NCBI GenBank assembly: GCA_964372385.1
Contig: CAYJQP010000002.1
Location: forward strand, 1 to 24,677
Source of the DNA: Candidatus Woesearchaeota archaeon
GTDB taxonomy: Archaea > Nanobdellota > Nanobdellia > Pacearchaeales > GW2011-AR1
Length of the DNA stretch: 24,677 bases
Reading direction: 5' to 3'
Positions 4,332 through 20,824 of the stretch are shown in pieces. Position 1 is the first letter of the stretch, and every line of letters begins with the position of its first letter. The translations under genes and the position numbers were made by a program. The notes beneath the pieces are model-generated. The model ran no database searches. It saw only the letters and a list, made by a program, of their open reading frames with translations, and was not told the DNA's origin.

Positions 4332-6341
4332 TTAAATTTTTTGAATAAATCCTTGTTTTGGACGGAAGATATCTCCTATTTTTGACAACTGTTCAAGGGC
4401 TTCTTCTAATTCTGTTTTTGATATCTTGTCTTCTAATGCTTTTTCAAGCTCTTCTATTGGAATTAATTTTCCTAATTTTGATTCTAATTGAGATAGAGTT
4501 TCTTTAACGAAGAGGATTTTGCTTCTTTTTGATGATGTAATGCCTGTTGTCATTCTGTCTATGTCAAAAGACTGCGTTTCCTCGTCGTAGCCGACTTGAG
4601 ACAATGAAGTTTTTAGAAGGTCTATTGCTTTTTTTGCGTCTTCTCCGAGGACTTTATCGCGTAGATGGAGCTTTGCGTGCGCTTCTGCGAGACGGACAAT
4701 TCCTTCTAACTGCCTTGCTGTTATCGGAATCGGTTTTATATCAGAATCTGATTTTATTGATTGATTTCTTAGTTTTACATAGAAGTTTTTTATTTCTTCC
4801 ACTGCTTCATTTGTTAATTTTGGATGGACTTTTTGTTTTGCATAAGCAATGTATTTTCTTAAAAGCTTTGGCTCTACAACATCTCTTATTATTTCCTGCT
4901 TGTGCTCTTCTAAAACATGTGTTGCAATTGCCTCGTCTTGTATTTTATTTGGGAGATCACGTATAACAAAAATTACATCAAATCTTGAGAGCAGAGCGGG
5001 AGAGATGTCAATCTGCTGTGGAATCGGCGTGTAAGGGTCAAACCTTCCGAGTTTAGGATTGCCTGCTGCGAGGACAGTTGTTTCTGCTCTTAATGTTGCG
5101 TGAATGTTTGCTTTGGTGATTGTAACTGTTTGCTGCTCCATTGCCTGATGCATAGAAGATCTGTCATGCTCGCTCATTTTTTCTATTTCATCTATTGCGC
5201 AGAATCCTTTGTTGCTCAATACCATTGCACCAGCTTCTAGAGACCAGCCCCTAAGAAATTCGTCCTTGACTACGCTTGCAGTCAAGCCAGCTCCTGTAGT
5301 TGCTTTTCCTGAAACATATCTTCCTTTTGGAGCTATTGTTGACACGAATTGTAGCATTACTGATTTTGCAACACCGGGGTCGCCGACAAGCAAGATATGA
5401 ATGTCGCCGCGAGTTTTTCCGCCATCTGATTTTGTTTTCTTTACACCGCCTAAAAGTTGAAGGAGGATAGCTTCTTTAATTCTGTCAAATCCGTAGACAC
5501 TTGGGGCTATACTTTGCGATAATTTTTTAAAAAGTTTAGGATTCGCAGAGAGTTCAAGTATTTCTTTTATGTCTTCTTCTTTTATGTTAAGCTCTTCAAA
5601 AGATTCTTCCATTGGAATTATATTGTTGGCTTCAATTGCGATGTCAAAACGAGTTGAGATTCCTGTTTGAATTGGCACAGGGATTTCTTTTAAAATTCCG
5701 AATATTTTTATCCTGCTTCCTGGATTAGTGTGTTTTTCCATTTTAGGGTCAACTAAATCTTCTTTTAGGAATGTGTTAATTCTTCTTGGCTGTTCGCCGC
5801 CTTCTAAAGCATCAGGCGATTCTTCTATCACGAGTCTTTGGACATCTACCATTTCTTTTGAGAGGAGCTTGAAATTTCCTTTCCAGTTGCAAGAGCATCG
5901 TGATGGCTCTCTGAATTTTCTGTCAACCTGCAGAACAGAAAGAATTGCCCCGCAGCTCGGGCATTCAAATTTTGCGTTAACCACTTGCGGTTTTACATCT
6001 GATGCCTGCCTTACAATGCCTTCAACAGCGAGGAATTGGTCAAGATGTTTTGCTCTTATATTCCTTATTTTTTCGTGCGAAGTTTGCGGAAGATCTAAAA
6101 GGCGAATCCTTGGATTTTTTACCAATTCAGATTCTTCCAATGCATTTTCTAATATTGCAATTGTTTCTTCCGGGCGGTCTGTTGTTTGATCAGCGAGTTC
6201 TGGCGAGAATTCAGACAATTTATTAAAAGAAATGTGGACAACTTTTTCACCTGTTCTTATTGAGCTTATTATGTCTTTTTTTGATGCGTTGAAGAAGTTT
6301 TTTGCTTCTAATAAAAGTTCTTCTTGTCTCTTTTTTTCCAT
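4332..6341 (-). CDS. mcm: Replicative helicase MCM (intein-free)
   Basis: Zn finger CPSC...CSC, Walker A GDPGVAKS, Walker B IDEIEKM, AMEQQT, AAGNP, arginine finger LSRFD, sensor-2 TARQLE, C-terminal wH. Confidence 0.98.
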   Translation of the reverse strand: MEKKRQEELLLEAKNFFNASKKDIISSIRTGEKVVHISFNKLSEFSPELADQTTDRPEETIAILENALEESELVKNPRIRLLDLPQTSHEKIRNIRAKHLDQFLAVEGIVRQASDVKPQVVNAKFECPSCGAILSVLQVDRKFREPSRCSCNWKGNFKLLSKEMVDVQRLVIEESPDALEGGEQPRRINTFLKEDLVDPKMEKHTNPGSRIKIFGILKEIPVPIQTGISTRFDIAIEANNIIPMEESFEELNIKEEDIKEILELSANPKLFKKLSQSIAPSVYGFDRIKEAILLQLLGGVKKTKSDGGKTRGDIHILLVGDPGVAKSVMLQFVSTIAPKGRYVSGKATTGAGLTASVVKDEFLRGWSLEAGAMVLSNKGFCAIDEIEKMSEHDRSSMHQAMEQQTVTITKANIHATLRAETTVLAAGNPKLGRFDPYTPIPQQIDISPALLSRFDVIFVIRDLPNKIQDEAIATHVLEEHKQEIIRDVVEPKLLRKYIAYAKQKVHPKLTNEAVEEIKNFYVKLRNQSIKSDSDIKPIPITARQLEGIVRLAEAHAKLHLRDKVLGEDAKKAIDLLKTSLSQVGYDEETQSFDIDRMTTGITSSKRSKILFVKETLSQLESKLGKLIPIEELEKALEDKISKTELEEALEQLSKIGDIFRPKQGFIQKI

Positions 6342-6582
6342 ACCTTAATTTATGAGCTTTGGTTTATAATGATTATTATTTATAAGAATATGCTTAATAA
6401 TTTTGTAGAAATTTTGAAGTAGAGCTTTAGATAAAGCAGGGCGGTATAAAAATGATAATTAATAATAAGAATATAAAATTATTGTTTATAGGTATATTAA
6501 TGGTTTTAGGGACTGAAAATCAAAGAAGTTAATTAGGGATTATTCTTTATCTAGAAAATTCTGGATTTTTTCTTTTATTGAA

Positions 6583-6809
6583 GGCGTATAATACGCAGTT
6601 AGGGACTCTTGTCGCTCAATAATTTTATTTTTATTTGAGTCTGTTATAACGGAGAACATAAATAATTGAGCATTTCATTTATGTTCCCTGAATATATAGT
6701 GAAAGACAGAAGTCTTTCCCTATCTAGTCAACGACAAATTGAGGAAAAACTAAAGTCGTTGACTATAGCAACAGACAATTCGCTCAATTATTTGAGTCTG
6801 TTGCTATAT
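6583..6809 (-). ncRNA. Candidate structured element E1 (abutting hairpins with complementary loops); RNA vs DNA role unknown
   Basis: Inverted repeats: 6766-6776/6796-6806 (11 bp), 6725-6735/6755-6765 (11 bp), 6696-6707/6712-6723 (12 bp, 1 mismatch), 6654-6663/6677-6686 (10 bp), 6604-6608/6637-6641 and 6584-6588/6592-6596. Loops carry mutually complementary AATTGAG(C)/(G)CTCAAT(T). Confidence 0.5.
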
Positions 6810-7091
6810 TTCAAGAACTTCTGGGAATTTCTCCGGGGTTTCTATTATTATTCTGTATTCTGGCTCTATGTAGTTTTTGTATTTTATTGCTTGTTGATAA
6901 TCTTTTAATTCTGTTTTGTAGGACTGCTGGTTTTCCAGATAGAATGTTTTATATTCTATTTTTTGTTGGATTTCTTTTTGGGGATTATTAATTGCTGATG
7001 TTTGCTCTTTTGTCATTTTACAATTTGTTAATATAACTGTAGAGATTAGAATAATGATAGCTTCTAGTGTTCTTTTTATACGCTGGTGCAT
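6804..7091 (-). CDS. Putative lipoprotein or secreted protein, function unknown
   Basis: Basic N-terminus, hydrophobic helix, lipobox-like LTNC; TATA-like sequence just upstream. Confidence 0.68.
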   Translation of the reverse strand: MHQRIKRTLEAIIILISTVILTNCKMTKEQTSAINNPQKEIQQKIEYKTFYLENQQSYKTELKDYQQAIKYKNYIEPEYRIIIETPEKFPEVLEI

Positions 7092-7122
7092 TTGAGATTA
7101 AAGTTTTTGAGCGTTTTAAGAT

Positions 7123-7569
7123 TTACTGTTCTGGAGGCTTGAGCTTGTAAGTTGGCTGGGAATTTTGCGCCGGCGTTTCTTGAGGTTTTTGTGTTAGGAC
7201 TTTTTCAAGATTTTTTATTGTGCTTTCTGAAGCCATAGCACCGAAAGCTTCAAGGAGACTTATCGTTTTATCGTTATTTGAGTCTATTATTTCAAGGGCT
7301 TTCTTGAATGTCTCTGGATTTTGTAATGACTTTAGATATTCGTGATATAAAAGATGTTCATGTTCTTTTGCTAAATCATAGAGTTCTTTCGTTGTTCTGT
7401 ATCTAGTTCCATCGGCAAAATGAAAGATTTGATAGATGCTATCTCCATAGGATGCGAATTTATTAATTGGGGCTGTTTTTTGCAAGTCTGTGGATTGACA
7501 TGTTGAATTGACAAAGAGAAAACTTGAAAGCAAAAGATGCCGTGATATTTTTTTGAAATAACCTCTCAT
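7123..7569 (-). CDS. Putative secreted protein or lipoprotein with one EF-hand-like loop
   Basis: Signal-like N-terminus ending NSTC; DSNNDKTISLLE fits Dx[DN]xDxxIxxxE; Pro/Gln-rich tail. Confidence 0.72.
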   Translation of the reverse strand: MRGYFKKISRHLLLSSFLFVNSTCQSTDLQKTAPINKFASYGDSIYQIFHFADGTRYRTTKELYDLAKEHEHLLYHEYLKSLQNPETFKKALEIIDSNNDKTISLLEAFGAMASESTIKNLEKVLTQKPQETPAQNSQPTYKLKPPEQ

Positions 7570-7628
7570 GTTTATTTATGTAATTTAAAGGTTTTAAGCA
7601 TTTTTGTTTTGCGATATGCGTTTTGTCT

Positions 7629-8738
7629 TTATTCAATCTGAAATCTTAGGATTGCTCCGACGCCCTTTGTGAGATTGAGAAATTGTTCGCCGTCCTGATT
7701 GTCCGTTGATATTATTACAACTTTCGCATCTATGGCATTTGCTTTTTTTTCAAATTCCTCTTTTTTTTCTTTCGGGAGTTTTTTTGAGAGCAGAAGAATT
7801 TCTACTGCACCACGTTCAAGAGCTATACGAGTTTTTTCTTCTCCGTATACTGCTTTTTCCCTGTGCTTGCCAAGGGTTTCAAAGAATTTTTCAAGAATTA
7901 ATTTTTCTTTTATCAGCTCCTGTTCTGAGATGTCTTTTTGCGATTCTTCAACTAACAGCTCCAAGCCGTGCTCGTCGGTGTAGCCGAGGTCTTTTATAGC
8001 TATTACTTTATTTTTCAGAGATGTTACCAAATTTCCTTCTTCCAAGAATTCTTCTTTTGTTGGAATAGGGCCGCCGATGAGAATTCCTTTTAATTTTGGC
8101 ATGTCAAAGAATACTCTTTTCATTTCGTCTGCAACTCTTCGGAAAAATTGTTTTGCCAGGCCTTCTGTAATGCGATGAAAGCGCTGAGAGGATTGGCCGC
8201 CTGCCTTTATTTTTCCAGGGACGCCTGAAGAAAGTTTTGTCAGTGTTTTTATTTGCTTGCCTTCTAAAAGCCCGAGAGTTGCGTGCTGTCTGTCAATTAC
8301 GAGAAGCCCATAGGTTTCAGTAACTTCCAGCATTTCTTTTAATGGTTCTATAATAAAAGTCTGGTCGCATCTATATAATCTTGTGTTTAACCGCATTGGC
8401 GGTTCGAAGAGCCAGAGCCGAATGTCTTGGACGCCTTCTTTTTCTGATATATTTCCGCAGAATATTGCAAGCCCGTTTTTAGGAGTTTGTTTTATTTCTT
8501 TCATTTTTCTAATAATCATCTCAAGAGCTGTAATGACTGCTGTTTTTGTCTGCTTTGATTTTATGTTTGCGGCTGTTGATTTTTCCGCTTCCAACTGCTT
8601 CTGCACGAGGTTTATATTCTGGCCAACTGGAATTAATACTGTAACTAATTCAGTATGCCTTCCTTTTATACTTCCAAGTAAATCAACAAGCTCTTCAATC
8701 TCTTGTTTTTGCTTGTCTGTGATTTCAACGTGCTGCAT
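7629..8738 (-). CDS. prf1: Peptide chain release factor aRF1
   Basis: TAANIKSK (NIKS), LYRCDQTF (YxCxxxF), GGQSSQRF, C-terminal GVGAILRF. Confidence 0.97.
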   Translation of the reverse strand: MQHVEITDKQKQEIEELVDLLGSIKGRHTELVTVLIPVGQNINLVQKQLEAEKSTAANIKSKQTKTAVITALEMIIRKMKEIKQTPKNGLAIFCGNISEKEGVQDIRLWLFEPPMRLNTRLYRCDQTFIIEPLKEMLEVTETYGLLVIDRQHATLGLLEGKQIKTLTKLSSGVPGKIKAGGQSSQRFHRITEGLAKQFFRRVADEMKRVFFDMPKLKGILIGGPIPTKEEFLEEGNLVTSLKNKVIAIKDLGYTDEHGLELLVEESQKDISEQELIKEKLILEKFFETLGKHREKAVYGEEKTRIALERGAVEILLLSKKLPKEKKEEFEKKANAIDAKVVIISTDNQDGEQFLNLTKGVGAILRFQIE

Positions 8739-8759
8739 AAAAAGTTTAGTTTGAGAAGG

Positions 8760-8767
8760 TTTAAATA
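8760..8767. promoter_or_regulatory. Central TATA of the 50-bp divergent spacer (aRF1 / orphan)
   Basis: TTTAAA(TA); the palindromic core is 21 nt from the aRF1 ATG and 23 nt from ATG 8789. Confidence 0.5.
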
Positions 8768-8788
8768 TCTATTTTTTAGTTGATTTTT

Positions 8789-9151
8789 ATGAGGATTTAT
8801 TTGAGTTATGAGATGAAGGATGAGGAAGTTAAAATTAGCTCTGGCCATGCTCAATTTACCGGAGATAGTTCAGGAAGGGAATATTTTAAACAAGATATAA
8901 TTAATTTTTTAGGTGAACCGAGAGAAGCTCTATATGCTATTCGTGATTTAGTGTGCGGAAAATTTCCAGAGATTGAGTATGATTTTGATATTATGGAAGG
9001 CAGTTTAATTGATGATTTTTTTGCTAATAGGAGCAGAGAGAGGTATATTGAGTTTTATGCCGGAGATCTTTATGAGAGAATAATTTCTTTTTATGGGGAT
9101 TTTGTTGCAGAGCATGAATGTTTTGAGATGTCTAGAGGAATTCAACCCTAA
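8789..9151 (+). CDS. Hypothetical acidic, aromatic-rich protein
   Basis: ATG at 8789 preferred over TTG at 8780 on promoter geometry; 3' end overlaps the valS 3' end by 20 nt. Confidence 0.68.
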   Translation: MRIYLSYEMKDEEVKISSGHAQFTGDSSGREYFKQDIINFLGEPREALYAIRDLVCGKFPEIEYDFDIMEGSLIDDFFANRSRERYIEFYAGDLYERIISFYGDFVAEHECFEMSRGIQP

Positions 9152-11465
9152 AATCTCCTCCATGGATTTTTTTGGCGGCTGTGACCGCTCTGATATCTGG
9201 AAGAATAGTATTAAGAGCTGTTAAAGTTGGTTTGGGAAGAGTTAGAACAATTGGCGAGTTCATTGATTTTTTGGCTTCTGATTTTGCCTGCCTGACTTTT
9301 GAGATAATTTCTATGAGGATATTCCAGATTTGCTCGTCTGATTTTTCCGATTTTATTTTTATTTTTGTTGGCCAGTCTGAAATGTGAATTGAGGGAGTTT
9401 TTTCATATTCTTTAAAATAAGTTTGATAGATATGCTCGGTGATGAACGGAGTGATTGGGGCGAAGAGTTTTAGCAATGTCAGGAGGGAACTGTAAAGAGC
9501 ATATGACGCAGAGGCTTTTTCTTGTTCATTTCCCTGATAGATTCTGTTTTTTATAATTTCCAGATAATTATCTGTGAATGAGTGCCAGAAGAAACTGTCT
9601 GTTTCTAATTTTGCTTTTGAGTAGTTGTAATTGTTGAAAGCAGATGCTGTGGAGATTATTAAAGAGTTGAGCTGCGAGAGGAATAGGCGGTCAGTTTCTA
9701 TTAATTTTGGCTGTTTTTTTTGGTGTTTTAGGTTGAGGAAGACGAATTTTGCCGCATTGAGAATTTTTGTAACATATTTTTTCCCCGTTATCATTTCTTT
9801 TTCTTGGTAGCCGAGGTCTTCGCCTAATTTTGATGTTGATGCCCAGTATCTTAAAACATCAGAGCCGTATTTTTGCATTATTTCCTGTGGGGAAATAACA
9901 TTGCCTTTTGATTTTGACATTTTCTGGCCTTCTAATGTTACAAAGCCAGAGATTGTTATGTCGCTCCATGGGATTTTAGATTCGTGCAAAAGAGATTTGA
10001 CAATTGTGTAGAACGCCCAGGTTCTTATTATGTCATGTGCCTGCGGGCGGAGAGAGTATGGGATTTTTATTTTGTTGTTTATTAGTGATGATGCAATTTG
10101 CGGCGTTAAAGATGAAGTTGCCCAAGTATCAAGAACTTTTGTTTCAGGAACAAGAGGTAATTTGCATTCTGGGCAGTTTTTTTTTATTTTTAATGGATCA
10201 ATTGGGAGTTCTGATTCTTTTGGTAAAACAGTAAGATTGCATTTTTCGCAATGCCATGCAGGGATTGGAATGCCGAAATGCCTATCTCTTGAAATGCTCC
10301 AGTCCCATTCCAAGCCATTAATCCAGTTTTCATATCGCTTTAGCATGTGCTCTGGAAACCAAGATATTTTTTTCCCTTGTTGAATTAATTGTGACTTTTT
10401 ATCTAAGATTTTTACAAACCATTGTTCAAGCGGAAGAAATTCAATCTCTGTTCCGCATTTATCATGAACATTTACATTGTGTTCAATTGTTTTTTGTTCA
10501 AGAATTAGATTTTGTGATTTTAAATCTTCTAGGATTTTTTTTCTTGCGTCTTTTATTGACAGAGAATTGTATTTTGGGATGTTTAGAGTGCCGTTTTTAT
10601 TTATTATTATTTTTGGCTGCAGTTTATGGCGCTTTATTGCATCAACATCGTATTTGTCGCCGTAAGAGCATACCATCAAAACACCTGTTCCTTTTTCTAT
10701 ATTTGCTGATTCGTCCTGAATAATTGGCACTTGGTGATTGAATAAAGGCACGACTGCTTTTTTTCCTATTAGATGTTTGTATCTTTTATCTTGTGGATTT
10801 ATGAAAACTGCGACGCATGCGGCGAGGAGCTCAGGCCTTGTTGTAGCAATCGGCAGGTCTTTGTTTTCTGATTTGAATTTTAATGTTGTGAATTGAGTTG
10901 TTTTTGTTTTGTCTTCTAATTCTGCCTGCGCAACAGGAGTCTGGCATTCTGGGCAGTAGATTGTCGGGAATTTTTCTTTGTAGATTAAACCTTTTTTGTA
11001 CAGCTGGAGGAAGGATTGCTGTGAGATTTTTTGTGAGTTCTCGTCTATTGTTGAGTAATATAAATCATAGTCGCAAGATATGCCTAAATTTTTCCAGTCT
11101 TGGATAAAATCAGGAGTGATTTCTTTGAGGGTTTTGAGGCAGAGAGCGATGAAATCAGTTCTTGACATTGATTTTGATTTTATATTGTTAATTTTTTCCA
11201 CTAATCTTTCTGTCGGCAGGCCGTTGTCATCTGTGCCAAATGGATAGAAAACTTCAAAGCCGGACATTCTTTTGAATCTTGCTATGAAGTCCTGCTGTGA
11301 GTATGAAAATGCATGTCCAACATGCATATTTCCGGAAACTGTCGGAGGAGGAGTGTCTATGCTGTAGATTTTCTTTTTTGAGCTTTTATTAAATTTGTAA
11401 ATTTTTTCTTTTTCCCAGAATCTCAAGATTTGTTTTTCTATTTCTTGGATGTTTGTTTCGTGCAT
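9132..11465 (-). CDS. valS: Valyl-tRNA synthetase (archaeal type)
   Basis: IDTPPPTVSGNMHVGH (HIGH), ATTRPE, GTG editing motif, WDWSISRDRHFGIPIP, LDTWATS, RPQAHDIIRTW, KMSKSKGN. Confidence 0.97.
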   Translation of the reverse strand: MHETNIQEIEKQILRFWEKEKIYKFNKSSKKKIYSIDTPPPTVSGNMHVGHAFSYSQQDFIARFKRMSGFEVFYPFGTDDNGLPTERLVEKINNIKSKSMSRTDFIALCLKTLKEITPDFIQDWKNLGISCDYDLYYSTIDENSQKISQQSFLQLYKKGLIYKEKFPTIYCPECQTPVAQAELEDKTKTTQFTTLKFKSENKDLPIATTRPELLAACVAVFINPQDKRYKHLIGKKAVVPLFNHQVPIIQDESANIEKGTGVLMVCSYGDKYDVDAIKRHKLQPKIIINKNGTLNIPKYNSLSIKDARKKILEDLKSQNLILEQKTIEHNVNVHDKCGTEIEFLPLEQWFVKILDKKSQLIQQGKKISWFPEHMLKRYENWINGLEWDWSISRDRHFGIPIPAWHCEKCNLTVLPKESELPIDPLKIKKNCPECKLPLVPETKVLDTWATSSLTPQIASSLINNKIKIPYSLRPQAHDIIRTWAFYTIVKSLLHESKIPWSDITISGFVTLEGQKMSKSKGNVISPQEIMQKYGSDVLRYWASTSKLGEDLGYQEKEMITGKKYVTKILNAAKFVFLNLKHQKKQPKLIETDRLFLSQLNSLIISTASAFNNYNYSKAKLETDSFFWHSFTDNYLEIIKNRIYQGNEQEKASASYALYSSLLTLLKLFAPITPFITEHIYQTYFKEYEKTPSIHISDWPTKIKIKSEKSDEQIWNILIEIISKVRQAKSEAKKSMNSPIVLTLPKPTLTALNTILPDIRAVTAAKKIHGGDFRVEFL

Positions 11466-11485
11466 GTTTGGGATAAGGAGAAAGA

Positions 11486-11493
11486 GTTATAAA
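11486..11493. promoter_or_regulatory. Central TATA of the 50-bp divergent spacer (valS / orphan)
   Basis: GTTATAAA (TTTATAAC on minus), 20 and 22 nt from the two ATGs. Confidence 0.5.
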
Positions 11494-11515
11494 GGTTTTT
11501 GGTTTTGGTTTTTTT

Positions 11516-11941
11516 ATGGAAAATGATGAAATTGACTTTGAGGAATTGTATGAAAGAGTAAAGGCGCGAAATAATTTATCTTTTGGTGAATTAGATTTAA
11601 CGAGCGATGGATATTTATTAGAAAGTAAAAATCCAATATTGATTTTGTATATTCCTTCTTTGATAGGAGAGGGGAATTTTGTGCGGGCGCATTTGATGAC
11701 TGATATTTTCGGCAAAGAAAGTTTAGAAGAAATTTTACAGTCATTGGGAGAATTAATTATTTACAGAGATAAACTTAGAAAACTTGGCTATAATGGAAGG
11801 TTTGAGCATGATGATGAGAACTTTGAATATTTTTATGAAATTGAAGTTAGAGATACTAGTATTCTTAAGAAAATTGTAGTTGATTTTGGTAGTTTGCGTA
11901 GTGTTAATAGTTATCGATACAGTAAAGAAAAACTTATATAG
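11516..11941 (+). CDS. Hypothetical protein, paralog of 11962-12360
   Basis: Long ORF that aligns by eye with the next ORF (V.AH, GYN, NF.E..[YF]EI.V, K.V.DF). Confidence 0.8.
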   Translation: MENDEIDFEELYERVKARNNLSFGELDLTSDGYLLESKNPILILYIPSLIGEGNFVRAHLMTDIFGKESLEEILQSLGELIIYRDKLRKLGYNGRFEHDDENFEYFYEIEVRDTSILKKIVVDFGSLRSVNSYRYSKEKLI

Positions 11942-11961
11942 GGCATTGATAAAATTTTATT

Positions 11962-12360
11962 ATGGTTTTGGCAACTATTATAGAGAATGGGACAAGAGAA
12001 ATTTACAGTGATATGATGCGGAATGAAAAATTGTATTATAAAGGAAAATTGGAGGAAGATTCTGCAGGGAGATATACTCTTTTGCATGAAAATGGAAAAA
12101 TTTGGCTCGACTTGCCTGACTGCCCTGGAGATAATAAGATGGTTTATGCTCATGTCTTTGGCTCTCTTCATGAAGACAGCCCAGAAAAAATAATAAATGA
12201 AATGCTTTTGGTTGATCGTCTTTGCTCTCTGGCCCGTGCAAAAGGATATAATTCTTCTTCTTGGTGTAATGATGGAAATTTTGTTGAATGCAAATTTGAG
12301 ATACCTGTTAAGAAAAAAGAGGATTTGGAAAAAGTGATTTTGGATTTTAGTTTTGAGTAG
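11962..12360 (+). CDS. Hypothetical protein, paralog of 11516-11941
   Basis: Same shared motifs; lies in tandem, 20 nt downstream. Confidence 0.8.
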   Translation: MVLATIIENGTREIYSDMMRNEKLYYKGKLEEDSAGRYTLLHENGKIWLDLPDCPGDNKMVYAHVFGSLHEDSPEKIINEMLLVDRLCSLARAKGYNSSSWCNDGNFVECKFEIPVKKKEDLEKVILDFSFE

Positions 12361-12521
12361 GGTTATAATGAATTAAATAGCATGATTTATGGATGTATCA
12401 AGATCTATCATCAAGTTTATTAATAATCTTGTTTGGTTTATTTAAAATGGAAAAAAGAGAGGGGTTTTGCGGATTTTTAGAGCGGAGAAAAATTTATATA
12501 CATTGGATTCTTAAATAACAT

Positions 12522-12746
12522 ATGAAAAATTATCTAAAATTGTATAGCGAATTAACTCGTGAAATTGAAAAGTATTATGATGATGTATGTGAAGGATTGC
12601 GTAGTTACTCATTTCGCTTGCCTGAACAGAGACGAGATGATGATTTTGGTGGAGTTTGTGCTGTTTTGAGAGATGGAGATCCACCCAGAGTTCCAAGAAA
12701 ACCTCTGGCATTTGGCAGAACTTTTAGAGATGAACATGAAGTTTAA
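12522..12746 (+). CDS. Hypothetical protein
   Basis: 74-aa ORF with TTTATATA about 25 nt upstream, followed in the same orientation by nth. Confidence 0.52.
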   Translation: MKNYLKLYSELTREIEKYYDDVCEGLRSYSFRLPEQRRDDDFGGVCAVLRDGDPPRVPRKPLAFGRTFRDEHEV

Positions 12747-12770
12747 ATAATATCTTCTATTATTTTTTTT

Positions 12771-13397
12771 ATGAATAAAAGAAAAGAGTTTTTGCGGATT
12801 TTTAAAAAGGCAGAGAAGAAATATAGCAAGTCGGAGAAGAGGCTGGCTGGCGAGGGATGGGGCAGTGCGTGGAAAACATTGATTGTTACGATAATGTCTG
12901 CGCAATCGCGAGATGAGACGACGATTAAGATTGGACAAGAGCTGTTTAAGAAGTATGGGAGTTTGGAGAGCTTGGTGAGAGCGAGGAAAAAAGATGTTCT
13001 TCGGATTTTTAGTGGTTTGAATTACAATAAGACAAAGGCACGGAATGTTATTGCTTGTGCTAAGATGCTTGTAGAAGAATTTAATGGAAAAGTGCCTGAC
13101 AGTATTGACGAGCTTGTGAAATTGCCGGGAGTTGGAAGGAAGACTGCTAATTTGGTTTTGACAGAGGTTCATAAGAAAGATGGGGTTACCGTTGATACTC
13201 ATGTGCATCGCCTAAGCAATGTTCTTGGACTTGTAAAAACGAAAACGCCGCATCAGACGGAATTGGCTTTGATGAAAATTGCTCCCCTGAAATATTGGAG
13301 CAGGATAAACAGGATTTTTGTTTTGTGGGGGAAAGATTGTCCAGGGAGAGATAGGGAGAAATTGTTGAGAAAGCTGGAGGAATATAAAAATCAATAA
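12771..13397 (+). CDS. nth: Endonuclease III (HhH-GPD glycosylase/AP lyase) lacking the 4Fe-4S motif
   Basis: IMSAQSRD, HhH LPGVGRKTANLVL with catalytic Lys, VDTHVHRLS with catalytic Asp; no C-x6-C-x2-C-x5-C at the C-terminus. Confidence 0.92.
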   Translation: MNKRKEFLRIFKKAEKKYSKSEKRLAGEGWGSAWKTLIVTIMSAQSRDETTIKIGQELFKKYGSLESLVRARKKDVLRIFSGLNYNKTKARNVIACAKMLVEEFNGKVPDSIDELVKLPGVGRKTANLVLTEVHKKDGVTVDTHVHRLSNVLGLVKTKTPHQTELALMKIAPLKYWSRINRIFVLWGKDCPGRDREKLLRKLEEYKNQ

Positions 13398-13434
13398 AAC
13401 AAAGCTTTATAAATTTTAATTTATTAAGATTGTT

Positions 13435-13605
13435 ATGGTAAGCGACAACAAAATCCACATGCCTGGCGCTTTCGGCGGACTTATGAGATATGATTCAGAG
13501 TATAAAAGCAGATTCACGCTTTCTCCTGTGCAAGTTGTAGGGTTTGTTATTTTAGTGATTGTTTTTGTTTTGGCTATGAAGCTTTTGTGGCCTGTTGTTA
13601 GTTGA
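13435..13605 (+). CDS. secG: Preprotein translocase subunit SecG/Sec61beta (not in ORF track)
   Basis: MVSDNKIHMPGAFGGLMRYDSEYKSRFTLSPVQVVGFVILVIVFVLAMKLLWPVVS: GGLMRY[DE], LSP and one C-terminal TM helix. TTTATAAA lies upstream. Confidence 0.86.
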   Translation: MVSDNKIHMPGAFGGLMRYDSEYKSRFTLSPVQVVGFVILVIVFVLAMKLLWPVVS

Positions 13606-13633
13606 TTATTTATTAGTAGGGGTTTTGATTTAT

Positions 13634-13942
13634 ATGGATGAAAAAAATATTAAGAAACTCACTATGCTGATGAGGAAGGGCAAGGATAATTTTTGGGTAA
13701 TTTTAAGAAGAATATTAGTTGAAAGAAAGATTGATTTTGATAGGGCGATTTTGGTTGAGTCTTTTGAAGACGATTTAAATTGTGAATACGGAAAGGTTAT
13801 GACTAAAGACAACGAGGTTTATCAGTTTTGGATTTATTTTTCTGATGGAAAGGTTAGGGAGATTGAATGGCGAGAGGTTCTTGATAATTCAGATGAAGAA
13901 GAACTTGCGATTGCTAGGAAATTGATTAGAGAGAGATTTTAG
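13634..13942 (+). CDS. Hypothetical protein
   Basis: ATG at 13634 chosen because the track start overlaps secG; acidic/aromatic C-terminal half. Confidence 0.68.
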   Translation: MDEKNIKKLTMLMRKGKDNFWVILRRILVERKIDFDRAILVESFEDDLNCEYGKVMTKDNEVYQFWIYFSDGKVREIEWREVLDNSDEEELAIARKLIRERF

Positions 13943-13960
13943 TTTTGAAATTGCTTTGTC

Positions 13961-15055
13961 CTATTGCTGGCTGATTAAACTTTCTAATTTTTCTATGACT
14001 CTCTGAACAGTTAATTGAGAGAAGCAACAATCGGAGGAAGGACATTTGAGTTTTTTTATTACTTCATTTAGTTTGCCTTGAGAATTTTCTCTTAGAGCTT
14101 CTTGAATTTCTTGTGGGAATTCATAATTTGGATAATGGGTTTTCATTATATCTTTTATTTCTGGATATTCACTAAGTTGAATATAGCCGTGAAGTCCTAA
14201 ATTTTGACAGGGTTTTGAATTATTGAATGTTTCTAAATCAGGAATTGTTAGCATAGTTTTTTCTGAACCAGGATAAATAACTGCTTTGGGGTGTGTCGGG
14301 CCCAGCAGGATTACCATTTTTTCGTTTCCTAAAGCATAGGCAAGATGGATTTGCATGCCGTCAATGCCGATGCCTGCCGCTGATGCTTTTATTATTTCTG
14401 ATTCTGCTACGAAAGGTAATAATTCACCCGGTTTTGGATATACTGCAGGATGTATTGGAGCTTCATTAGGAGCTCGTTTTTCATAGAAAGTAAATTTATC
14501 AGATAAGCTGTCAATAAGATCTGTCCAGAAGTTTGAGTGATAGCTTTGAGGCATTCTATTCTCACTGCCGGCTGTTCTTGTGCCAAGCCAGATAATTGGT
14601 TTATTTTGTTCTAAAATTTCTTCTAACTTTCTTTTTCCCAATTCTATATTCTGTTTAAATTTTTCTTCAGGGAAGATTAGTTTTGATTCAAATTCTCTTG
14701 TTAGAAAAATCTTTTCGCTTAATTTTTCTGATAATTCTTTTTCAGCCATTCTTAACATGGCTTCAGTATAATGAAAACCGTAGTGATTGGGTAGCTCATT
14801 TTGATACCATGTTAAATCAATTTCTAGTTCATTTGACAATGGTTGATAATCAATGTCTAATAGTTGTGAGACAAAACCACCATCATATACTTTTAAATAG
14901 CCTTCAAGGATTTGCCTTCTTTCATCTTCTTTCACTTTAACTTTTATTTCAAGGTCAGGAAGGTTTTTATTAATAGACTTCAAGACGCGAGTAGTTTCAA
15001 TTAAATCACCAAGGGCTTGAGACGGTTTTAAGATTATTGTTTTTTCATTTGGCAT
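13961..15055 (-). CDS. Glycosyltransferase family 9-like protein (heptosyltransferase fold)
   Basis: N-terminal ALGDLI, and IIKASAAGIGIDGMQIHLAYALG...LLGPTHP resembling the GT9 D[ST]G..HLA.A...P...LFGPT motif; ends C-FSQLTVQRV. Confidence 0.78.
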   Translation of the reverse strand: MPNEKTIILKPSQALGDLIETTRVLKSINKNLPDLEIKVKVKEDERRQILEGYLKVYDGGFVSQLLDIDYQPLSNELEIDLTWYQNELPNHYGFHYTEAMLRMAEKELSEKLSEKIFLTREFESKLIFPEEKFKQNIELGKRKLEEILEQNKPIIWLGTRTAGSENRMPQSYHSNFWTDLIDSLSDKFTFYEKRAPNEAPIHPAVYPKPGELLPFVAESEIIKASAAGIGIDGMQIHLAYALGNEKMVILLGPTHPKAVIYPGSEKTMLTIPDLETFNNSKPCQNLGLHGYIQLSEYPEIKDIMKTHYPNYEFPQEIQEALRENSQGKLNEVIKKLKCPSSDCCFSQLTVQRVIEKLESLISQQ

Positions 15056-15132
15056 TTTATTCTGAAATATTTGCAGTATAAATTATTTTATGTGGTAGAA
15101 AACTATAAATAACATCTTCTTTTTATAAAATT

Positions 15133-15471
15133 ATGTTACCGGGAGTCGGCGGATTAAATCCGAAGAAAATGCAGGCGATGATGAAGCAGCTTGGCATTAA
15201 TCAGGAAGAGATAGATGCAGAGAGGGTTGTAATTGAAAAGAGCGACGGCTCAAGGATAGTTATTGAAAACCCGAATGTGCAGAAAATAAAAATGCAGGGG
15301 CAGGAAAGTTTTCAAATTGTCGGAGATGTTAGAGAAGAAGATTCCGGCGTTAGCGAGGAGGATGTGAAATTAATTATGGAGAAGACAGGCAAGGACGAGG
15401 ATGAGGTTAGAAGAGTTTTGGAAGAAGCTGGAGGAGATATTGCAGAGGCGATTGTTAAGCTTGGAGTGTGA
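15133..15471 (+). CDS. nac: Nascent polypeptide-associated complex protein (aNAC)
   Basis: NPKKMQAMMKQLGI, GQESFQI, C-terminal UBA-like GGDIAEAIVKL. Confidence 0.95.
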   Translation: MLPGVGGLNPKKMQAMMKQLGINQEEIDAERVVIEKSDGSRIVIENPNVQKIKMQGQESFQIVGDVREEDSGVSEEDVKLIMEKTGKDEDEVRRVLEEAGGDIAEAIVKLGV

Positions 15472-17998
15472 AATAATCTTCTAAAACATTTTTATTATTT
15501 TCAAACCATTTCGTGTTTATTTGCATGATTTCAAATGCATTTGCTTTTGTTTTTTCGTAGCCTGTTTTTTTATTTTTCAAGAAATTTTTTATTTCTTTTT
15601 CTTTTTGCTTGTCTGCGTAGAGAGTTATGAAAGATTCCAAGAAAGACATGAAAACAAAGTGCACTTTTTTGTAATCATTTAATTTTGACCAGTTTGTTTT
15701 CACCCATTTGAAATATATCTGCCTTATTTTAGGATTTGTGTTTATATTACCGAAGACAGTTCTTAAATCCTGGATTCTTACTTTTTTTGAGAGGGAGAAA
15801 TCAAGGGCTTTTTTTAGTATGTTTGTGTCTTTGAACTTGTACAATGCAGAAAGTATTTTGACTTTTTCTTCCGGGCTTTTAGTTTTCGCATAAATTTTTA
15901 ATAAGGAGTTGTAGATATTTTCGTTACCGTTTCTTGCAGTTAGTGTGTAGATAGCTCCTCTTATGTCAGGATGAACAGAATCAGGGTTTTTTTGCAGGGC
16001 TTTGAAATAGCTTGTTCCAGAATTTATTATTTCTTGGTCTTCTGCGAATGAGAGATAATTTATTGCCAATGGCCTTAACAGAGAGCTGTTATGGTTTTCG
16101 TTTTTATTTATTTTCCATCCAAGCATTTCAAAATTCTTTTGGAACGGCTCTTTAATATGGCTCTTGTATTTATCCCATATCTTTCCCCATTCTTGTGATT
16201 GAGAGAAGATGAAATAAATTTCGTGAATATTTGAATAAATGTCTTCAAGAACAAAAGAACTTGTTTCATTGCTGTAGGATTTGATGAAATTGAGGCAGAT
16301 GTGCAGAGGGAGTTCGCTGAAGAGGGAGAGAGCGAACAAATCATTTTGTATGTTGTTTCTGTCTATGGCAGAGAGTTTTTTTTGCGAGATAAGGATTTTT
16401 AGTTTTTCCAGATTTTCTTTTTGATATTTTACCCTGTAAAATCCTTCCTGCTCGCTATTTATTTTAAACCATTCTGTATTTTTTGGCAGAGCAAGTGTTT
16501 GCGTTTTTTTTGTTATTAGAGTTTTAATTAAAGAATTGTTTGTTTTAATTGTTATAGGAATTTGCCAGAGAGTTTTGTCTTTGGTTTTTGAATTGAATTT
16601 TTTCTGCGTTAGTGTTAGAGTGTTGTTTATTTGTTTTACTTCAATTAAAGGATAGCCGGGCTGTTTTATCCATGATTCCATTATTGATTTTATTGGAGCA
16701 TTTGAAACTTTTGATAGCTCATTCCATAAGTCAGATGCCTGCGCATTTTTGTATTTGTATTTTTTCAAATAATTTGAGATTCCTCCTTGGAAAACTTTCG
16801 GCGAAAGGTAAGATTCTATCATTCTTAGAACAGAGCCGCCCTTTGCGTAGCTTATCGCGTCAAATATTTCTTCTATTTCATTTGGCGTGTTTACTTTGAC
16901 TGCTATTGGGTGCGTTGTTTTGAGAGAGTCGTCAGACAAACCATGTGTTGTTTCTCCTGCTATAAAGTCATTCCACATCTCCCATTCAGGGAAATAGTAA
17001 TCAACTGCCTTGTAAGCCATGTAAGTTGCGAAACTTTCATTTAGCCATAAGTCGTCCCACCATTTCATTGTCACCAGATTTCCAGACCATTGATGCCAGA
17101 GCTCGTGGGCGATAACTTCTGCTATTCTTTTTTTAACTTTTAATGAGGTTTTTTTTGGATTAAAGAGAAGAAGGAGTTCTCTAAAAGTAATTGCGCCCCA
17201 GTTTTCCATTGCTCCTGCCGCAAAGTCAGGAATTGCTATCAAGTCCAGTTTTGGCAGAGGATATGGGACTTTAGAGAAATTTTCAAAATACTTCAAGAAT
17301 TTTTTTGTTAATTCAAGGGCGAATTTTCCCTCATTTGATTTTCCCGGAGTTGCTGCAATTCTTATTTTTGTTTTATTTAATTTTGATTCTATGAACTCAA
17401 ATTCGCCAACGCCGATGTAGAGAAGATAAGTTGACATTTTTGGGGTTTTTTGGAATTTTATTATCTTTTCTGAAGAAAGGTTTTTGTGTGATTCTATGGG
17501 CATGTTGGAAATTGCTTTTAGATTTTTTGGGATTTTTAATGTTAAGGAGAAAGCGGCTTTTTTGTCCGGCTGATCAAAGCAAGGGAAGGCTTTTCTTGCA
17601 TAGGGAGCTTCAAACTGTGTTGTCGCGAGATATTTCTCTTTGCCTTTATGGAGGTATTTTGAGCGATAGAAACCGTAGAGCTTGTCGTTTAAAACGCCCT
17701 GAAATTTAATTTCTATTATTGCTGAATTATTTATTTGTCTATTGAGCTCAAGAGTGAGGGTCTCGTTTTTTTCATTTAATTTTATTTTTGGTTTTATTGT
17801 TTGATTGTTGTGTTTTACTTTTGCTTCTGTTATTTTTAATTCTGAAGAATTAAGGATTATTTTTGAGGTCGGTTTTTTTATATTTAATGAGATTTTTACT
17901 TCTCCCTTAAATCTGAAAGATTTTAGGTTTGGCTCAATGAATAAATCATAATTTTCAGGGGAAATTGATTCCGGGAGTTTGTATTCTTTTTTTTGCAT
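15455..17998 (-). CDS. M1 family zinc aminopeptidase (aminopeptidase N / tricorn-interacting factor-like)
   Basis: TQFE..ARKAFPCFD, GAMENWG, HELWHQW-x-WLNESFA (HExxH-x18-E), YAKG, ERAP1-like C-terminal region. Confidence 0.95.
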   Translation of the reverse strand: MQKKEYKLPESISPENYDLFIEPNLKSFRFKGEVKISLNIKKPTSKIILNSSELKITEAKVKHNNQTIKPKIKLNEKNETLTLELNRQINNSAIIEIKFQGVLNDKLYGFYRSKYLHKGKEKYLATTQFEAPYARKAFPCFDQPDKKAAFSLTLKIPKNLKAISNMPIESHKNLSSEKIIKFQKTPKMSTYLLYIGVGEFEFIESKLNKTKIRIAATPGKSNEGKFALELTKKFLKYFENFSKVPYPLPKLDLIAIPDFAAGAMENWGAITFRELLLLFNPKKTSLKVKKRIAEVIAHELWHQWSGNLVTMKWWDDLWLNESFATYMAYKAVDYYFPEWEMWNDFIAGETTHGLSDDSLKTTHPIAVKVNTPNEIEEIFDAISYAKGGSVLRMIESYLSPKVFQGGISNYLKKYKYKNAQASDLWNELSKVSNAPIKSIMESWIKQPGYPLIEVKQINNTLTLTQKKFNSKTKDKTLWQIPITIKTNNSLIKTLITKKTQTLALPKNTEWFKINSEQEGFYRVKYQKENLEKLKILISQKKLSAIDRNNIQNDLFALSLFSELPLHICLNFIKSYSNETSSFVLEDIYSNIHEIYFIFSQSQEWGKIWDKYKSHIKEPFQKNFEMLGWKINKNENHNSSLLRPLAINYLSFAEDQEIINSGTSYFKALQKNPDSVHPDIRGAIYTLTARNGNENIYNSLLKIYAKTKSPEEKVKILSALYKFKDTNILKKALDFSLSKKVRIQDLRTVFGNINTNPKIRQIYFKWVKTNWSKLNDYKKVHFVFMSFLESFITLYADKQKEKEIKNFLKNKKTGYEKTKANAFEIMQINTKWFENNKNVLEDYFTLQA

Positions 17999-18132
17999 AT
18001 TTTATTAGAGTTTTTTGCATATTTAAAATTGAAGGTTAGTTTGCTTTTTGATTTGCAGTTTAGAAAGGTATTTAAATGACACAAACTTTTCACCTTCTCT
18101 CTCACTTAACTGTTGAGGGGTGAATTCATTGC

Positions 18133-18558
18133 ATGGAGAGAATAATTAAGGAAAAAATTAGTGCTGACCATCTGCTTTATGTTAGCTTGAAATACACGAA
18201 GACTTGTGATGTTATTATTAATCTTCTTTTAAGGTGGAAGAATATGATTGAATTTGCAATGGATGAATTAACTGAAAGGGCGAAGAAGAAGAAAAAGTGG
18301 AAGACAGTTACGGACGCACCTCGCGCCAAGCTGCTGGAACTGAAGAAAATTTATGCTTCTGAAAAAGATATTGCAGATACTCTTGAATTATACGAATTAT
18401 TTAGGGATATAGAAAAACTTGAGAAGGTTCGAGAGAGCGAGTTTAGGAAAGGCGTTAATTTGAAGGTTTTTTATAAAGGACAGGAGATTAACATAAATTT
18501 GGACAAGCTAAGGGAATATTCTGATTTGTTAGAAAGATTTATAAGTGCTCTGAAATAA
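18133..18558 (+). CDS. Hypothetical helical protein upstream of minD
   Basis: 141-aa ORF with SD-like GGGGTGA upstream and TATA at 18071-18076. Confidence 0.78.
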   Translation: MERIIKEKISADHLLYVSLKYTKTCDVIINLLLRWKNMIEFAMDELTERAKKKKKWKTVTDAPRAKLLELKKIYASEKDIADTLELYELFRDIEKLEKVRESEFRKGVNLKVFYKGQEININLDKLREYSDLLERFISALK

Positions 18559-18577
18559 TTTGTTTATGACATTGAAT

Positions 18578-19333
18578 ATGGCAAAAGTTATAACTATAAG
18601 TTCTGGGAAAGGGGGTGTTGGCAAGACAACTTCTGCTATTAATCTTGGAGCTGCTTTGAATTATTTCGGCAAGGATGTAATAGTTGTTGACGCTAATTTG
18701 ACGACGCCGAATATTGGACTGCATTTGGGCGCGCCGATTGTTCCAGTGAGTTTGAATCATGTTTTGAACGGAAAGGCAAAGATTTCTGACGCAATTTATG
18801 AGCATAGTTCAGGGATGAAGATTATTCCAAGTTCGCTTAGCGTTAGAGAATTGAGAAAGCTGAACAGCAATGGCAAATTAAAGGAAATAGGCAAGAAATT
18901 AAGAAAATTCGCGGATTTTGTTATTTTTGATTCTGCGGCTGGTTTAGGTGATGAGGCAATTGCTTCGTTGGAGGCGGCTGATGAGATTATCATAGTTACA
19001 AATCCGGAAATACCGGCTGTTACAGATGCTTTGAAAACCAGCAAAGTTGTTGAAGGACTTGGAAAAGAAGTCAAAGGCGTTGTGGTGGCAAGAGTCAAGG
19101 GAACGAAAACAGAAATGCCGCTTTCCAATATCAGCGACATGCTTGAACTGCCGATTTTGGTTGTTATTCCAGAGGATAAAAATGTTCCGCAGAGCGTTAA
19201 TTTGAAAGACGCTTTAGTGCATGCTTATCCGAAATCAAAGGCATCAAGAGCATATAGGAAACTTGCCGCGAAATTAATTGGAAAAGAGGATTATAGAGAA
19301 GGCGGTTTTTGGGCAAGGGTTTTTGGAGGATAG
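18578..19333 (+). CDS. minD: MinD-like ATPase (archaeal)
   Basis: Deviant Walker A GKGGVGKTT, DANLTTPN, DSAAG, AVTDALK, C-terminal amphipathic FWARVFGG. ATG at 18578 is the likely start. Confidence 0.92.
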   Translation: MAKVITISSGKGGVGKTTSAINLGAALNYFGKDVIVVDANLTTPNIGLHLGAPIVPVSLNHVLNGKAKISDAIYEHSSGMKIIPSSLSVRELRKLNSNGKLKEIGKKLRKFADFVIFDSAAGLGDEAIASLEAADEIIIVTNPEIPAVTDALKTSKVVEGLGKEVKGVVVARVKGTKTEMPLSNISDMLELPILVVIPEDKNVPQSVNLKDALVHAYPKSKASRAYRKLAAKLIGKEDYREGGFWARVFGG

Positions 19334-19375
19334 GGGTTTTTGATTGGATGAGGGTTTTGATGATGCGAGAATTAG

Positions 19376-19395
19376 GTGTGAGCCACACTTTTTTT
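19376..19395 (+). terminator. Possible hairpin plus T-tract terminator after minD
   Basis: GTGTG-AGC-CACAC followed by 7 T. Confidence 0.33.
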
Positions 19396-19525
19396 ATTAA
19401 AGTTACAAGAAGTTGAATATGTTGGATTAATCTTTCTTTACATCAATATCAGAAAAATAATTCCCCTATTGAACTGTATTCTGAATTGTGATTAAGCTTA
19501 TTAATTTCATATTATATAGTATTTA

Positions 19526-20512
19526 GTGTTAGAAGAAAGATTAAGCAGGGATAATGGAAAAGGATGGGACATTCTTGAAAATTTAGCCAGGCAGGCTGTC
19601 TTGGCAGCAGGCGTTTCTGCACTTAAGTATTACGAAGAAGTTGTGGCTTTAGCTGAAGGCGCAAATCCATCAACAATGGCTGACCACGACGCTACTTTTT
19701 CCTTAATTAAAAGCTTAGAAGATGAACTAAAGAATTTATCTAGCGAGTATAAATTTGACTATAGATATTTTGGAGAAGAATTTGAGAAACTTGAAACTGG
19801 CAAGGCATCTGATTCTGAGAAAAAGGCAATTGAAGATGTGTTGGGGAAGCTTAGTTATGCTGATGGCAGGATTAGTAAGAGCTATGCAGATTTCTCCAGC
19901 AAATATGACAAAGATAATATTTGTATATTATTTGACCCGCTTGATGGAACAAATGCTTTTAGATTAGGGCTACCTTTATTTTCCTCAGCTCTAGCATTTT
20001 TTATCGGCGACAGGCCCAAGATTAGTGCAATCTATAATATTTCAGAGAATGTTATTTATTCTGCGTCCTTAAGAGGAGATGAAAGCGAGGCGGATGTTTG
20101 GAATATTGCTCAAAATAAACATTCAGATTTAAAAGAAGAAAGAAAGAAAAGGCTAGTGAGAAGGGGAAATCAGCCAATTCAAATCTCTACTCAAATAACC
20201 AGGTCTAATGAAGAAAAAAGAAAAGAAGGATTAGAGATGTTGGAGAAAATGCCCTCTAAGTCAACTGTTTATATGCTTAATGGCGGCCAATATTCTATCT
20301 CACAAGTTGCCAAGGGAAGCCTTGATTGTTATATAAATAACTGGACTTATAGTTGGGATGTTTCTCCAGGAGAGGTTTTAATTAACGCAATTGGCGGAAA
20401 AGTAACAGATATTAATAAAAAAGACATTGATTATACTAAGAAAAGAATTGGAGTTATAGCTGCTGGAAACGAGAAAGCATACAATGAATTAATTTATTAT
20501 AAGCTTTTTTAG
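19526..20512 (+). CDS. Inositol monophosphatase / FBPase-IMPase superfamily protein
   Basis: TMAD, FGEE, FDPLDGTNAF metal site, WDVSPG...GGKVTD. GTG start is uncertain. Confidence 0.85.
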   Translation: MLEERLSRDNGKGWDILENLARQAVLAAGVSALKYYEEVVALAEGANPSTMADHDATFSLIKSLEDELKNLSSEYKFDYRYFGEEFEKLETGKASDSEKKAIEDVLGKLSYADGRISKSYADFSSKYDKDNICILFDPLDGTNAFRLGLPLFSSALAFFIGDRPKISAIYNISENVIYSASLRGDESEADVWNIAQNKHSDLKEERKKRLVRRGNQPIQISTQITRSNEEKRKEGLEMLEKMPSKSTVYMLNGGQYSISQVAKGSLDCYINNWTYSWDVSPGEVLINAIGGKVTDINKKDIDYTKKRIGVIAAGNEKAYNELIYYKLF

Positions 20513-20579
20513 TCAGTTAATGTATTAATCACCTTAAAGAAAATAAGTTAGGAATTGTAAAGGTTGATAAAAGAGGAAG

Positions 20580-20811
20580 GGCGTATAATTGATTTGATAA
20601 ATATGTTTTTACTCTTTTTTGTATTGGATTTTAATCTTCTCGGCTTGGGAGATATACATTTTGTCCAGAAATCTTTAGTGGACAATTGCTGAAAACCTGT
20701 CACATAAACAACGCAGTTACAGCAGACCAATTAAGTCTTTCGGCTTTTCTTAATTGCTCCGCTGTCCAGTAAACCAACAAAAAACCGAAGAATTAAGTTG
20801 GTTTACTATAT
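20580..20811 (-). ncRNA. Candidate structured element E2, same termini and architecture as E1
   Basis: Hairpins 20768-20778/20797-20807 (11 bp), 20719-20735/20749-20765 (17 bp with one G-U on minus and one mismatch), 20661-20667/20679-20685. A 10-bp loop-loop complementarity includes a G-U on the minus strand. Confidence 0.5.
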
Positions 20812-20824
20812 CCATAAATTGAAT

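Follow-up and report, generated by a model that had tools for sequence, protein, structure and literature searches.

MITEs (miniature inverted-repeat transposable elements) of the TA-duplicating IS630/Tc1-mariner kind include plant Stowaway, the Correia elements of Neisseria, MITEEc1/ERIC-like elements and Sulfolobus SM1. Here we describe repeats of comparable form in a Candidatus Woesearchaeota archaeon, starting from two hairpin arrays on the minus strand, E1 (6809-6583, 227 nt) and E2 (20811-20580, 232 nt), of a 24,677-nt stretch of its genome (GenBank assembly GCA_964372385.1, contig CAYJQP010000002.1, positions 1 to 24,677), hereafter the window. We consider it probable (about 0.8, a figure that leaves the responsible enzyme aside) that in E1 and E2 mobile, non-coding DNA repeats of the MITE type have piled up by insertion. 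Like the IS630/Tc1-mariner MITEs, the repeats are shorter than 200 bp, non-coding, present in high copy number and mostly intergenic, with terminal inverted repeats, a TA on both sides and insertion into one another. Unlike them, they have no IS630-type partner with matching ends that we could find. A complete hairpin beginning at the terminal base forms each end and is preserved by compensatory changes, and it is in a 12-nt loop motif, not in the terminal bases, that the inverted repeats chiefly resemble each other.

Two other systems invite comparison. The bacterial REP/REPIN-RAYT system is similar in its inverted doublets of short hairpins with conserved foot nucleotides and variable paired stems, and in the single-copy Y1 gene of the genome. 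In the archaeon, however, the Y1 gene is of the IS200 type and accompanied by tnpB, TA is duplicated, and the two hairpins of one element have different stems. For the double-hairpin elements of Allomyces mitochondria (Paquin, Laforest and Lang 2000, as summarised in PMC2800124), no flank duplications are reported and an RNA intermediate was suggested. As portrayed there, those elements also consist of two adjacent hairpins and are dispersed, apparently mobile and non-coding, with no known mobilising enzyme; the repeats described here differ in having TA common to both sides and in residing in an archaeal chromosome. A census of prokaryotic MITEs places one Woesearchaea genome among the highest archaeal densities, at 105 per Mb (PMC11602168, Nucleic Acids Research 2024), to be compared with 94 loci from seven families in 0.86 Mb here. 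The census gives no families, hairpin architecture, target, nesting or covariation, and the words "hairpin" and "nested" are absent from its main text. We take the elements for a new family within a well-known class of selfish DNA; their hairpin architecture is conserved to an unusual degree.

Composition of the E1 and E2 arrays

The source assembly comprises 862 kb in 135 contigs (34.5% GC, 91% complete), and the window is its contig C2; other contigs are named in the same way. The genes of the window are archaeal housekeeping genes (MCM, aRF1 and aminoacyl-tRNA synthetases), and exact-pattern matches in other records carry the label Candidatus Woesearchaeota. A preliminary description had taken E1 and E2 for copies of one ~230-nt unit with conserved length and ends, either a structured non-coding RNA (ncRNA) family or a non-autonomous mobile element. 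BLAST against the own genome does not support such units: repetition is confined to 6808-6644 and 20810-20718, and no second copy exists of 6643-6583 or 20717-20580. The repeated parts are themselves composites of smaller elements, and the 227- and 232-nt stretches are not units. Aligned directly, E1 and E2 show nothing meaningful beyond short motifs, and a ~230-nt family was rejected; the apparent conservation of length and ends is an accident of two different pile-ups. The architecture that is truly conserved is a ~90-nt element of two hairpins. The parts of the two arrays are as follows.

6807..6808, minus strand: TA, 5' flank of element O, one copy of the duplicated target
6647..6806, minus strand: element O, 93 nt without its guest, starting TAGCAACAGAC and ending CTCCGTTA, interrupted by element C
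6808-6764 and 6690-6650, minus strand: hairpins 1 and 2 of O
6697..6765, minus strand: element C, 69 nt, TAGTCAACGAC to CTTTCACTA, nested in O
6765-6725 and 6722-6697, minus strand: hairpins of C, the former with a 19-nt loop, the latter with a tetraloop
6645..6646, minus strand: TA, 3' flank of element O
6583..6644, minus strand: non-repeated tail of E1, ending in ATTATACGCC, with no other genomic copy
20653..20814, minus strand: decayed host element of the B/F/G family, 5' end TGGA-TA-ACTGCGTTG, split by element E2el, second hairpin lost
20809-20810 and 20718-20719, minus strand: TA copies of E2el
20720..20808, minus strand: element E2el, 89 nt, TAGTAAACCAAC to GGTCTGCTG, two hairpins
20579..20652, minus strand: non-repeated tail of E2, holding ATTATACGCCC, outside any repeat

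Copies of the whole O+C composite (6808-6644, 165 nt) occur on C5, C7, C15, C18 and C20 at ~98-100% identity, and uninterrupted copies of O are found on C8, C26, C31 (two) and C56. Element C stands alone in at least 10 places (C4, C10, C19, C32, C36 and C105 among them). Within E1 it occupies the first TA of the TATA that joins the two hairpins of O, with its TA copies at 6766-6767 and 6695-6696. In the tail of E1, 6644-6611 resembles the 5' arm and loop of O in a decayed state, lacking the 3' arm and lengthened by a 10-nt insertion, and 6601-6592 is a fragment resembling the 5' end of family B (TAACTGCGTA). We infer that the tail is debris of older insertions rather than a terminus.

The flanking TA at 6807..6808 reads TATAG with the next three bases, so that the MITE terminus supplies the TAG stop codon of a small open reading frame (ORF) on the minus strand (p95, 6804-7091), one effect of these elements on genes. 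The ORF is a weak paralog of its neighbour p148 (7123-7569, minus strand) and is ~54 residues shorter at its end. The insertion may have truncated p95; a C-terminal remnant was sought downstream of E1, and none was found there.

In E2, the 89-nt E2el lies within a 93-nt repeat (20810-20718). Two of its copies, on C4 and C114, are ~96% identical to it and a third, on C131, is partial; TA flanks all three. The empty site of E2el, TATGGA-TA-ACTGCGT, matches the 5' end of family B letter for letter, with exactly TA in common. The surrounding host is homologous to copies on C86 and C21 as well as to the F copy located at C7:4272-4364. Read in this way, E2 is an 89-nt element that landed in a B/F/G terminal motif.

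The sequence motifs thought to tie E1 to E2 fare unequally. Presence of TAACTGCGT in both was confirmed, but it is not specific to a shared element: its 18 occurrences in the genome are mostly the terminal motif of the B/F/G family (TGGATAACTGCGT), a different repeat family. The proposed common 3' terminus, GGCGTATAAT, lies outside every repeat, 50-75 nt past the last recognisable one in both arrays. It occurs exactly twice in the genome, both times inside the window, where ~2 occurrences are expected from 34.5% GC, and pairs of random intergenic segments of matched sizes have an exact 10-mer or longer in common in 7% of trials. We treat its sharing as chance, or at most as the debris of an old element. 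The ATATAG with which both arrays begin does lead, on both minus strands, into a perfect hairpin of 11-13 bp with an 18-19-nt loop, and is common to both because it contains the target TA followed by the terminal TAG. The abutting second hairpin, with a loop complementary to the first, is likewise present in E1 and in E2.

Folding energies confirm that the hairpins are strong. E1 folds at -70.7 kcal/mol (z -7.55 against shuffled sequence) and E2 at -55.7 kcal/mol (z -2.80, moderately better than shuffles). The plus strands fold about equally well, and thus folding cannot pick a strand. With E values allowed up to 10, still no Rfam family covers E1 or E2. In the window the gathering threshold is passed by a tRNA alone, at 344-429, and the best matches in E1 and E2 are far below theirs.

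Mobility, terminal hairpins and spread

Every full copy of O, C and E2el that was checked has TA on both sides; the elements start with T(A/G)G and finish with C(T/C)A, and conservation of the flanks is limited to the TA. Filled and empty sites were compared between paralogous copies within the genome. Five independent pairs were obtained (C in O, B in A, C in A, O2 in an unrelated 140-nt repeat, and E2el in a B-like 5' end), in which 2-4 letters are shared, with TA in all five, the duplication expected of IS630/Tc1-mariner-derived MITEs. Insertion of one element into another extends to three levels on C12 (1380-1700), where A contains C and C contains D, and further nests or clusters lie at C43:5920-6592 and C31:1-420.

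Several smaller observations concern the same sites. Tandem clusters of several families occur in the genome. The 58-nt twin-hairpin insert D and a 53-nt insert, H (C54:1784-1836), each lie between TA and TA. A short form of C carries TAGATA where D sits, which could be a footprint.

We defined seven families (A, O, C, C with D inside, B, E2el and F), together present at 94 loci that make up 8.6 kb of the genome; the elements are 69-95 bp long, non-coding and dispersed. Long open frames account for 81% of the genome, yet 87 of the 94 loci have less than 20% of their length inside them. The elements of E1 and E2 have copies 95-100% identical elsewhere, and many copies of the families are 97-100% identical. 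Within 60 nt of a contig end are 31 of the loci, and in this way the elements break metagenome-assembled genomes (MAGs). Unitigs from metagenomes also break at the elements, and in four public metagenome runs the read depth of the bin with E1 exceeds that of the neighbouring bins ~20-fold (1679 against ~86, 474 against 24, 525 against 29 and 201 against 10); the high copy number is thus a property of the reads and not an artefact of assembly. Near-identical dispersed copies, nesting, TA duplication, contig breaks and read depth together uphold the mobile-element half of the preliminary description. In annotation, piles of hairpins like these call for masking as repeats and not for prediction of ncRNA genes. 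The genome is that of a streamlined, symbiont-type archaeon of 0.86 Mb, with recently active mobile DNA and no recognisable cognate transposase.

Two hairpins make up the basic element, which is 70-95 bp long; each hairpin starts at the very end of the element. The order is TA target, T(A/G)G, a variable stem, the loop, the returning stem and CTA. Read inward, both ends of A and O elements show TA, then TAG or TAA, ~10 variable bases and, from base 16, the 12-nt motif AAATAATTGAGC. These ends thus have T(A/G)G and the 12-nt motif in common as terminal inverted repeats, and in B, C and E2el the ends, read directly from the sequences, are ~70-80% identical over 11-28 nt. The loops are complementary because the same motif stands at the same offset of two inverted ends; what had been described as kissing loops is the inner part of a bipartite terminal inverted repeat.

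Changes in the loop are mirrored between the ends: one copy has an extra T in both loops (C78), another has GAGC changed to NACC in both (C115), and relatives provide more matched variants of the two loops. Such mirroring would fit either pairing between the loops or one protein that binds both ends. We favour the protein, since the motif is conserved in sequence in distant genomes (G177 and G293) and since the second loop of family C is only a tetraloop. Two chimeric copies also involve these motifs. The copy at C1:5767-5859 has a shell of A and an interior that is the inverted interior of O, joined within the complementary loop motifs, and the copy at C121:13-104 is an A/O hybrid with a broken second hairpin, which suggests recombination between inverted loop motifs.

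Compensatory change was examined in two alignments, with slid pairings as controls. Among 20 A/O-type copies of the own genome, pairing in hairpin 1 reaches 91.7%, and 5 of its 13 pairs have changed on both sides; the pairing between loops holds in 96% of cells and is nearly invariant. The slid controls of this alignment give 40-48%. A covariance model, R1, was built from this alignment. In the alignment of metagenome copies, which was fitted to R1 and for that reason somewhat inflated in its pairing, 89% of cells are paired against ~40% in the slid controls, and 20 of 26 pairs have changes on both sides, with next to no variation in the four TATA foot pairs. Compensatory changes are thus present in both terminal hairpins, which are kept by selection or by the mechanism of movement. 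This upkeep, seen in relatives of the phylum-wide sample and in metagenomes, offers an entry point to the recognition of mini-elements.

R1 finds 28 matches in the own genome and 58 in 80 metagenome loci. Matches were present in 9 of 95 genomes sampled from the same taxonomic family, in 0 of 45 from other families of the order, and in 10 of 150 in the phylum-wide sample. Exact matches were found in two other Woesearchaeota MAGs and in 90 metagenome contigs. Viral carriers were considered and rejected: a 14-mer alone gives chance matches, the two-loop pattern is in 0 viral contigs, and R1 has 0 matches in 630 kb of viral control DNA containing the 14-mer. Judging from these matches, the two-hairpin architecture is old and widespread, and its patchy distribution is typical of mobile DNA.

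The mobilising enzyme and rival explanations

The elements insert into a TA, with a TA left on each side, and the TAs so made at the feet and loops of hairpins are hit in turn, giving Russian-doll nests. The elements encode nothing and, we propose, would be moved in trans. Our tentative choice of mover, to which we give slightly less than even odds, is a DDE transposase that works by cut-and-paste, belongs to the TA-duplicating IS630/Tc1-mariner type and binds the conserved loop motif at both ends. The hairpins, kept by selection, would probably matter for recognition or processing of the ends. As stated in the preliminary description, no transposase is adjacent: no transposase domain was found in the neighbouring ORFs scanned. 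The genome has three single-copy transposase systems, none of which matches the elements.

C7:4514-6126: IS200/IS605 tnpA and divergent tnpB, with the Y1 gene at 4514-4966, a standard IS200-type TnpA
C73:145-1047: IS481-like rve gene with 12-bp inverted repeats TGTGGTATCCGA, unrelated to the elements
C42:1752-2765: IS110-like DEDD gene, with ~150 nt of GC-richer structured DNA upstream

The IS481-like and IS110-like genes were rejected as partners (different ends, or no repeats nearby), and no credible serine recombinase was found in the genome. Enzymes were also correlated with MITEs across 141 sampled genomes of the order, 10 of them MITE-positive, using hypergeometric P values in which kin are not independent. 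DDE_3 (IS630-type) is present in 3 of the 141, and two of these, G004 and G118, are the relatives with most MITE copies (P ~0.013). Y1_Tnp is present in 30, that is in 6 of the 10 MITE-positive genomes and 24 of the 131 others (P ~0.007). Genomes rich in mobile elements confound both associations, and the link between DDE_3 and MITEs appears weak.

Several results weigh against the proposal. The 91%-complete MAG yielded no transposase of the IS630/DDE_3, mariner, IS4/5 or IS1595 kinds, and the DDE_3 and NF033545 profiles have no match in it over their cut-offs. The IS630-like genes of G004 and G118 lack MITE-like ends, and R1 finds nothing at the IS630-like loci of G004, G118 and G031. No long element bounded by the loop motifs was found in the genome or in the 80 metagenome loci, in a search where repeats are under-assembled in MAGs. 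The TA "duplication" would look the same if the element carried one TA and inserted next to another. A locus-specific empty allele was sought in relatives and metagenome runs, and none was recovered: the closest genome loses synteny at E2, the MCM-aRF1 spacer is too variable to align, and Logan contigs end at repeats, hence no such allele is readable. (Within the genus, the length of this spacer ranges between 237 and 1288 nt.) Finally, a plain DDE model leaves the compensatory upkeep of both terminal hairpins unexplained. An enzyme that reads shape (a foot of TA abutting TA(G), any paired stem, and the conserved loop motif at both ends) might be responsible instead, which we hold to be unlikely. 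If true, it would define a DPANN-wide class of mobile DNA recognised by structure and distinct from DDE MITEs, IS200/IS605 and REPIN.

The main rival for the enzyme is hairpin-dependent, single-strand mobilisation by a Y1 HUH enzyme, in the manner of REP/REPIN-RAYT or of IS200/IS605-derived palindrome-associated transposable elements (PATEs). Such an enzyme would read the shape of the hairpin together with its TATA foot and loop motif, make its cuts at the feet and insert beside a TA, and the element's own terminal TA would mimic a duplication. It would account for the compensatory changes that keep both terminal hairpins while stems differ between families, and for the near-invariance of the four TATA foot pairs. 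Near the 3' end of the single Y1 gene, on C7, an F element and an O+C composite lie at distances of 150-450 nt, and the Y1_Tnp association given above points the same way, with the same caution about kin. However, the Y1 protein is a standard IS200-type TnpA paired with tnpB (153 bits for the NCBIfam IS200 model) and not a RAYT (29.6 bits, cut-off 80). The flanks of the C7 tnpA-tnpB pair, the sole resident copy, share nothing with the MITEs apart from adjacent MITE insertions; the Y1 loci of G004 and G067 have no neighbouring MITE, and G003 has 11 R1 matches yet no Y1. IS200/IS605 elements use targets of 4-5 nt, and PATEs derived from them insert 3' of such a specific target with no duplication, whereas only TA is conserved at the insertion sites of the MITEs, and the ends of the MITEs are inverted rather than direct copies. 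The preliminary suggestion of an IS200/IS605-derived element is thus not sustained, and we hold the HUH route to be unlikely.

A family of structured ncRNAs, or a cis-regulatory RNA with kissing loops, would agree with the strong folds, the real covariation of the stems and the loops able to pair over 8-14 nt (96% of cells paired). It does not agree with the symmetry of the elements on both strands, which fold equally well, or with the lack of any Rfam match. The supposed units are put together from pieces that are each dispersed independently, their ends are not conserved, and an RNA family would have to exist in ~100 copies inserted into each other in a 0.86-Mb genome. The loop motif keeps its sequence in distant genomes instead of covarying freely, and the tetraloop of family C leaves no kissing partner. 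The sequencing runs listed as containing this DNA included no RNA run, in a search that was not one for RNA. We regard an RNA explanation as very improbable. Chance hairpins and motifs in AT-rich intergenic DNA would explain the 10-mer shared at the 3' ends, which is at chance level, but E1 folds 7.5 standard deviations better than shuffles, near-identical copies number in the dozens, and R1 has no match in the viral control DNA; the probability of this explanation is close to nil.

Other repeats and features of the window

Self-comparison of the genome places 17.4 kb (2.0%) at four or more copies, and many repeat families exist beyond the seven defined here. A MITE of ~155 nt that is not of the two-hairpin type has inverted repeats TGTTAAG..GGTGAT (C15:1698-1850, C43:2867, C60:4484 and C105:9). 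Two sets of ~350-nt repeats start with (T)ATCCTGAGTTCGCCA (C54:2808-3157, C87:420, C101:2344, C114:1658 and C119:827) and may be both ends of one unassembled insertion sequence. Also present in this AT-rich genome are GC-rich repeats, in four 88-nt copies on C9 (10143, 12592, 13387 and 15949), and, at four places, a GC-rich hairpin of 59 nt with a T-run after it (C4:8900; C11:3371, 4142 and 5182).

The tRNA gene at 344-429 of the window (minus strand, Rfam score 60 bits) has a 14-nt intron after the anticodon loop; ARAGORN in bacterial mode reported no tRNA in the window. Directly downstream of E1, at 6528-6557, a minority contig with six substitutions and a 1-nt deletion was identified in metagenome runs X1-X3 at ~1/3 depth, which indicates co-existing strains.

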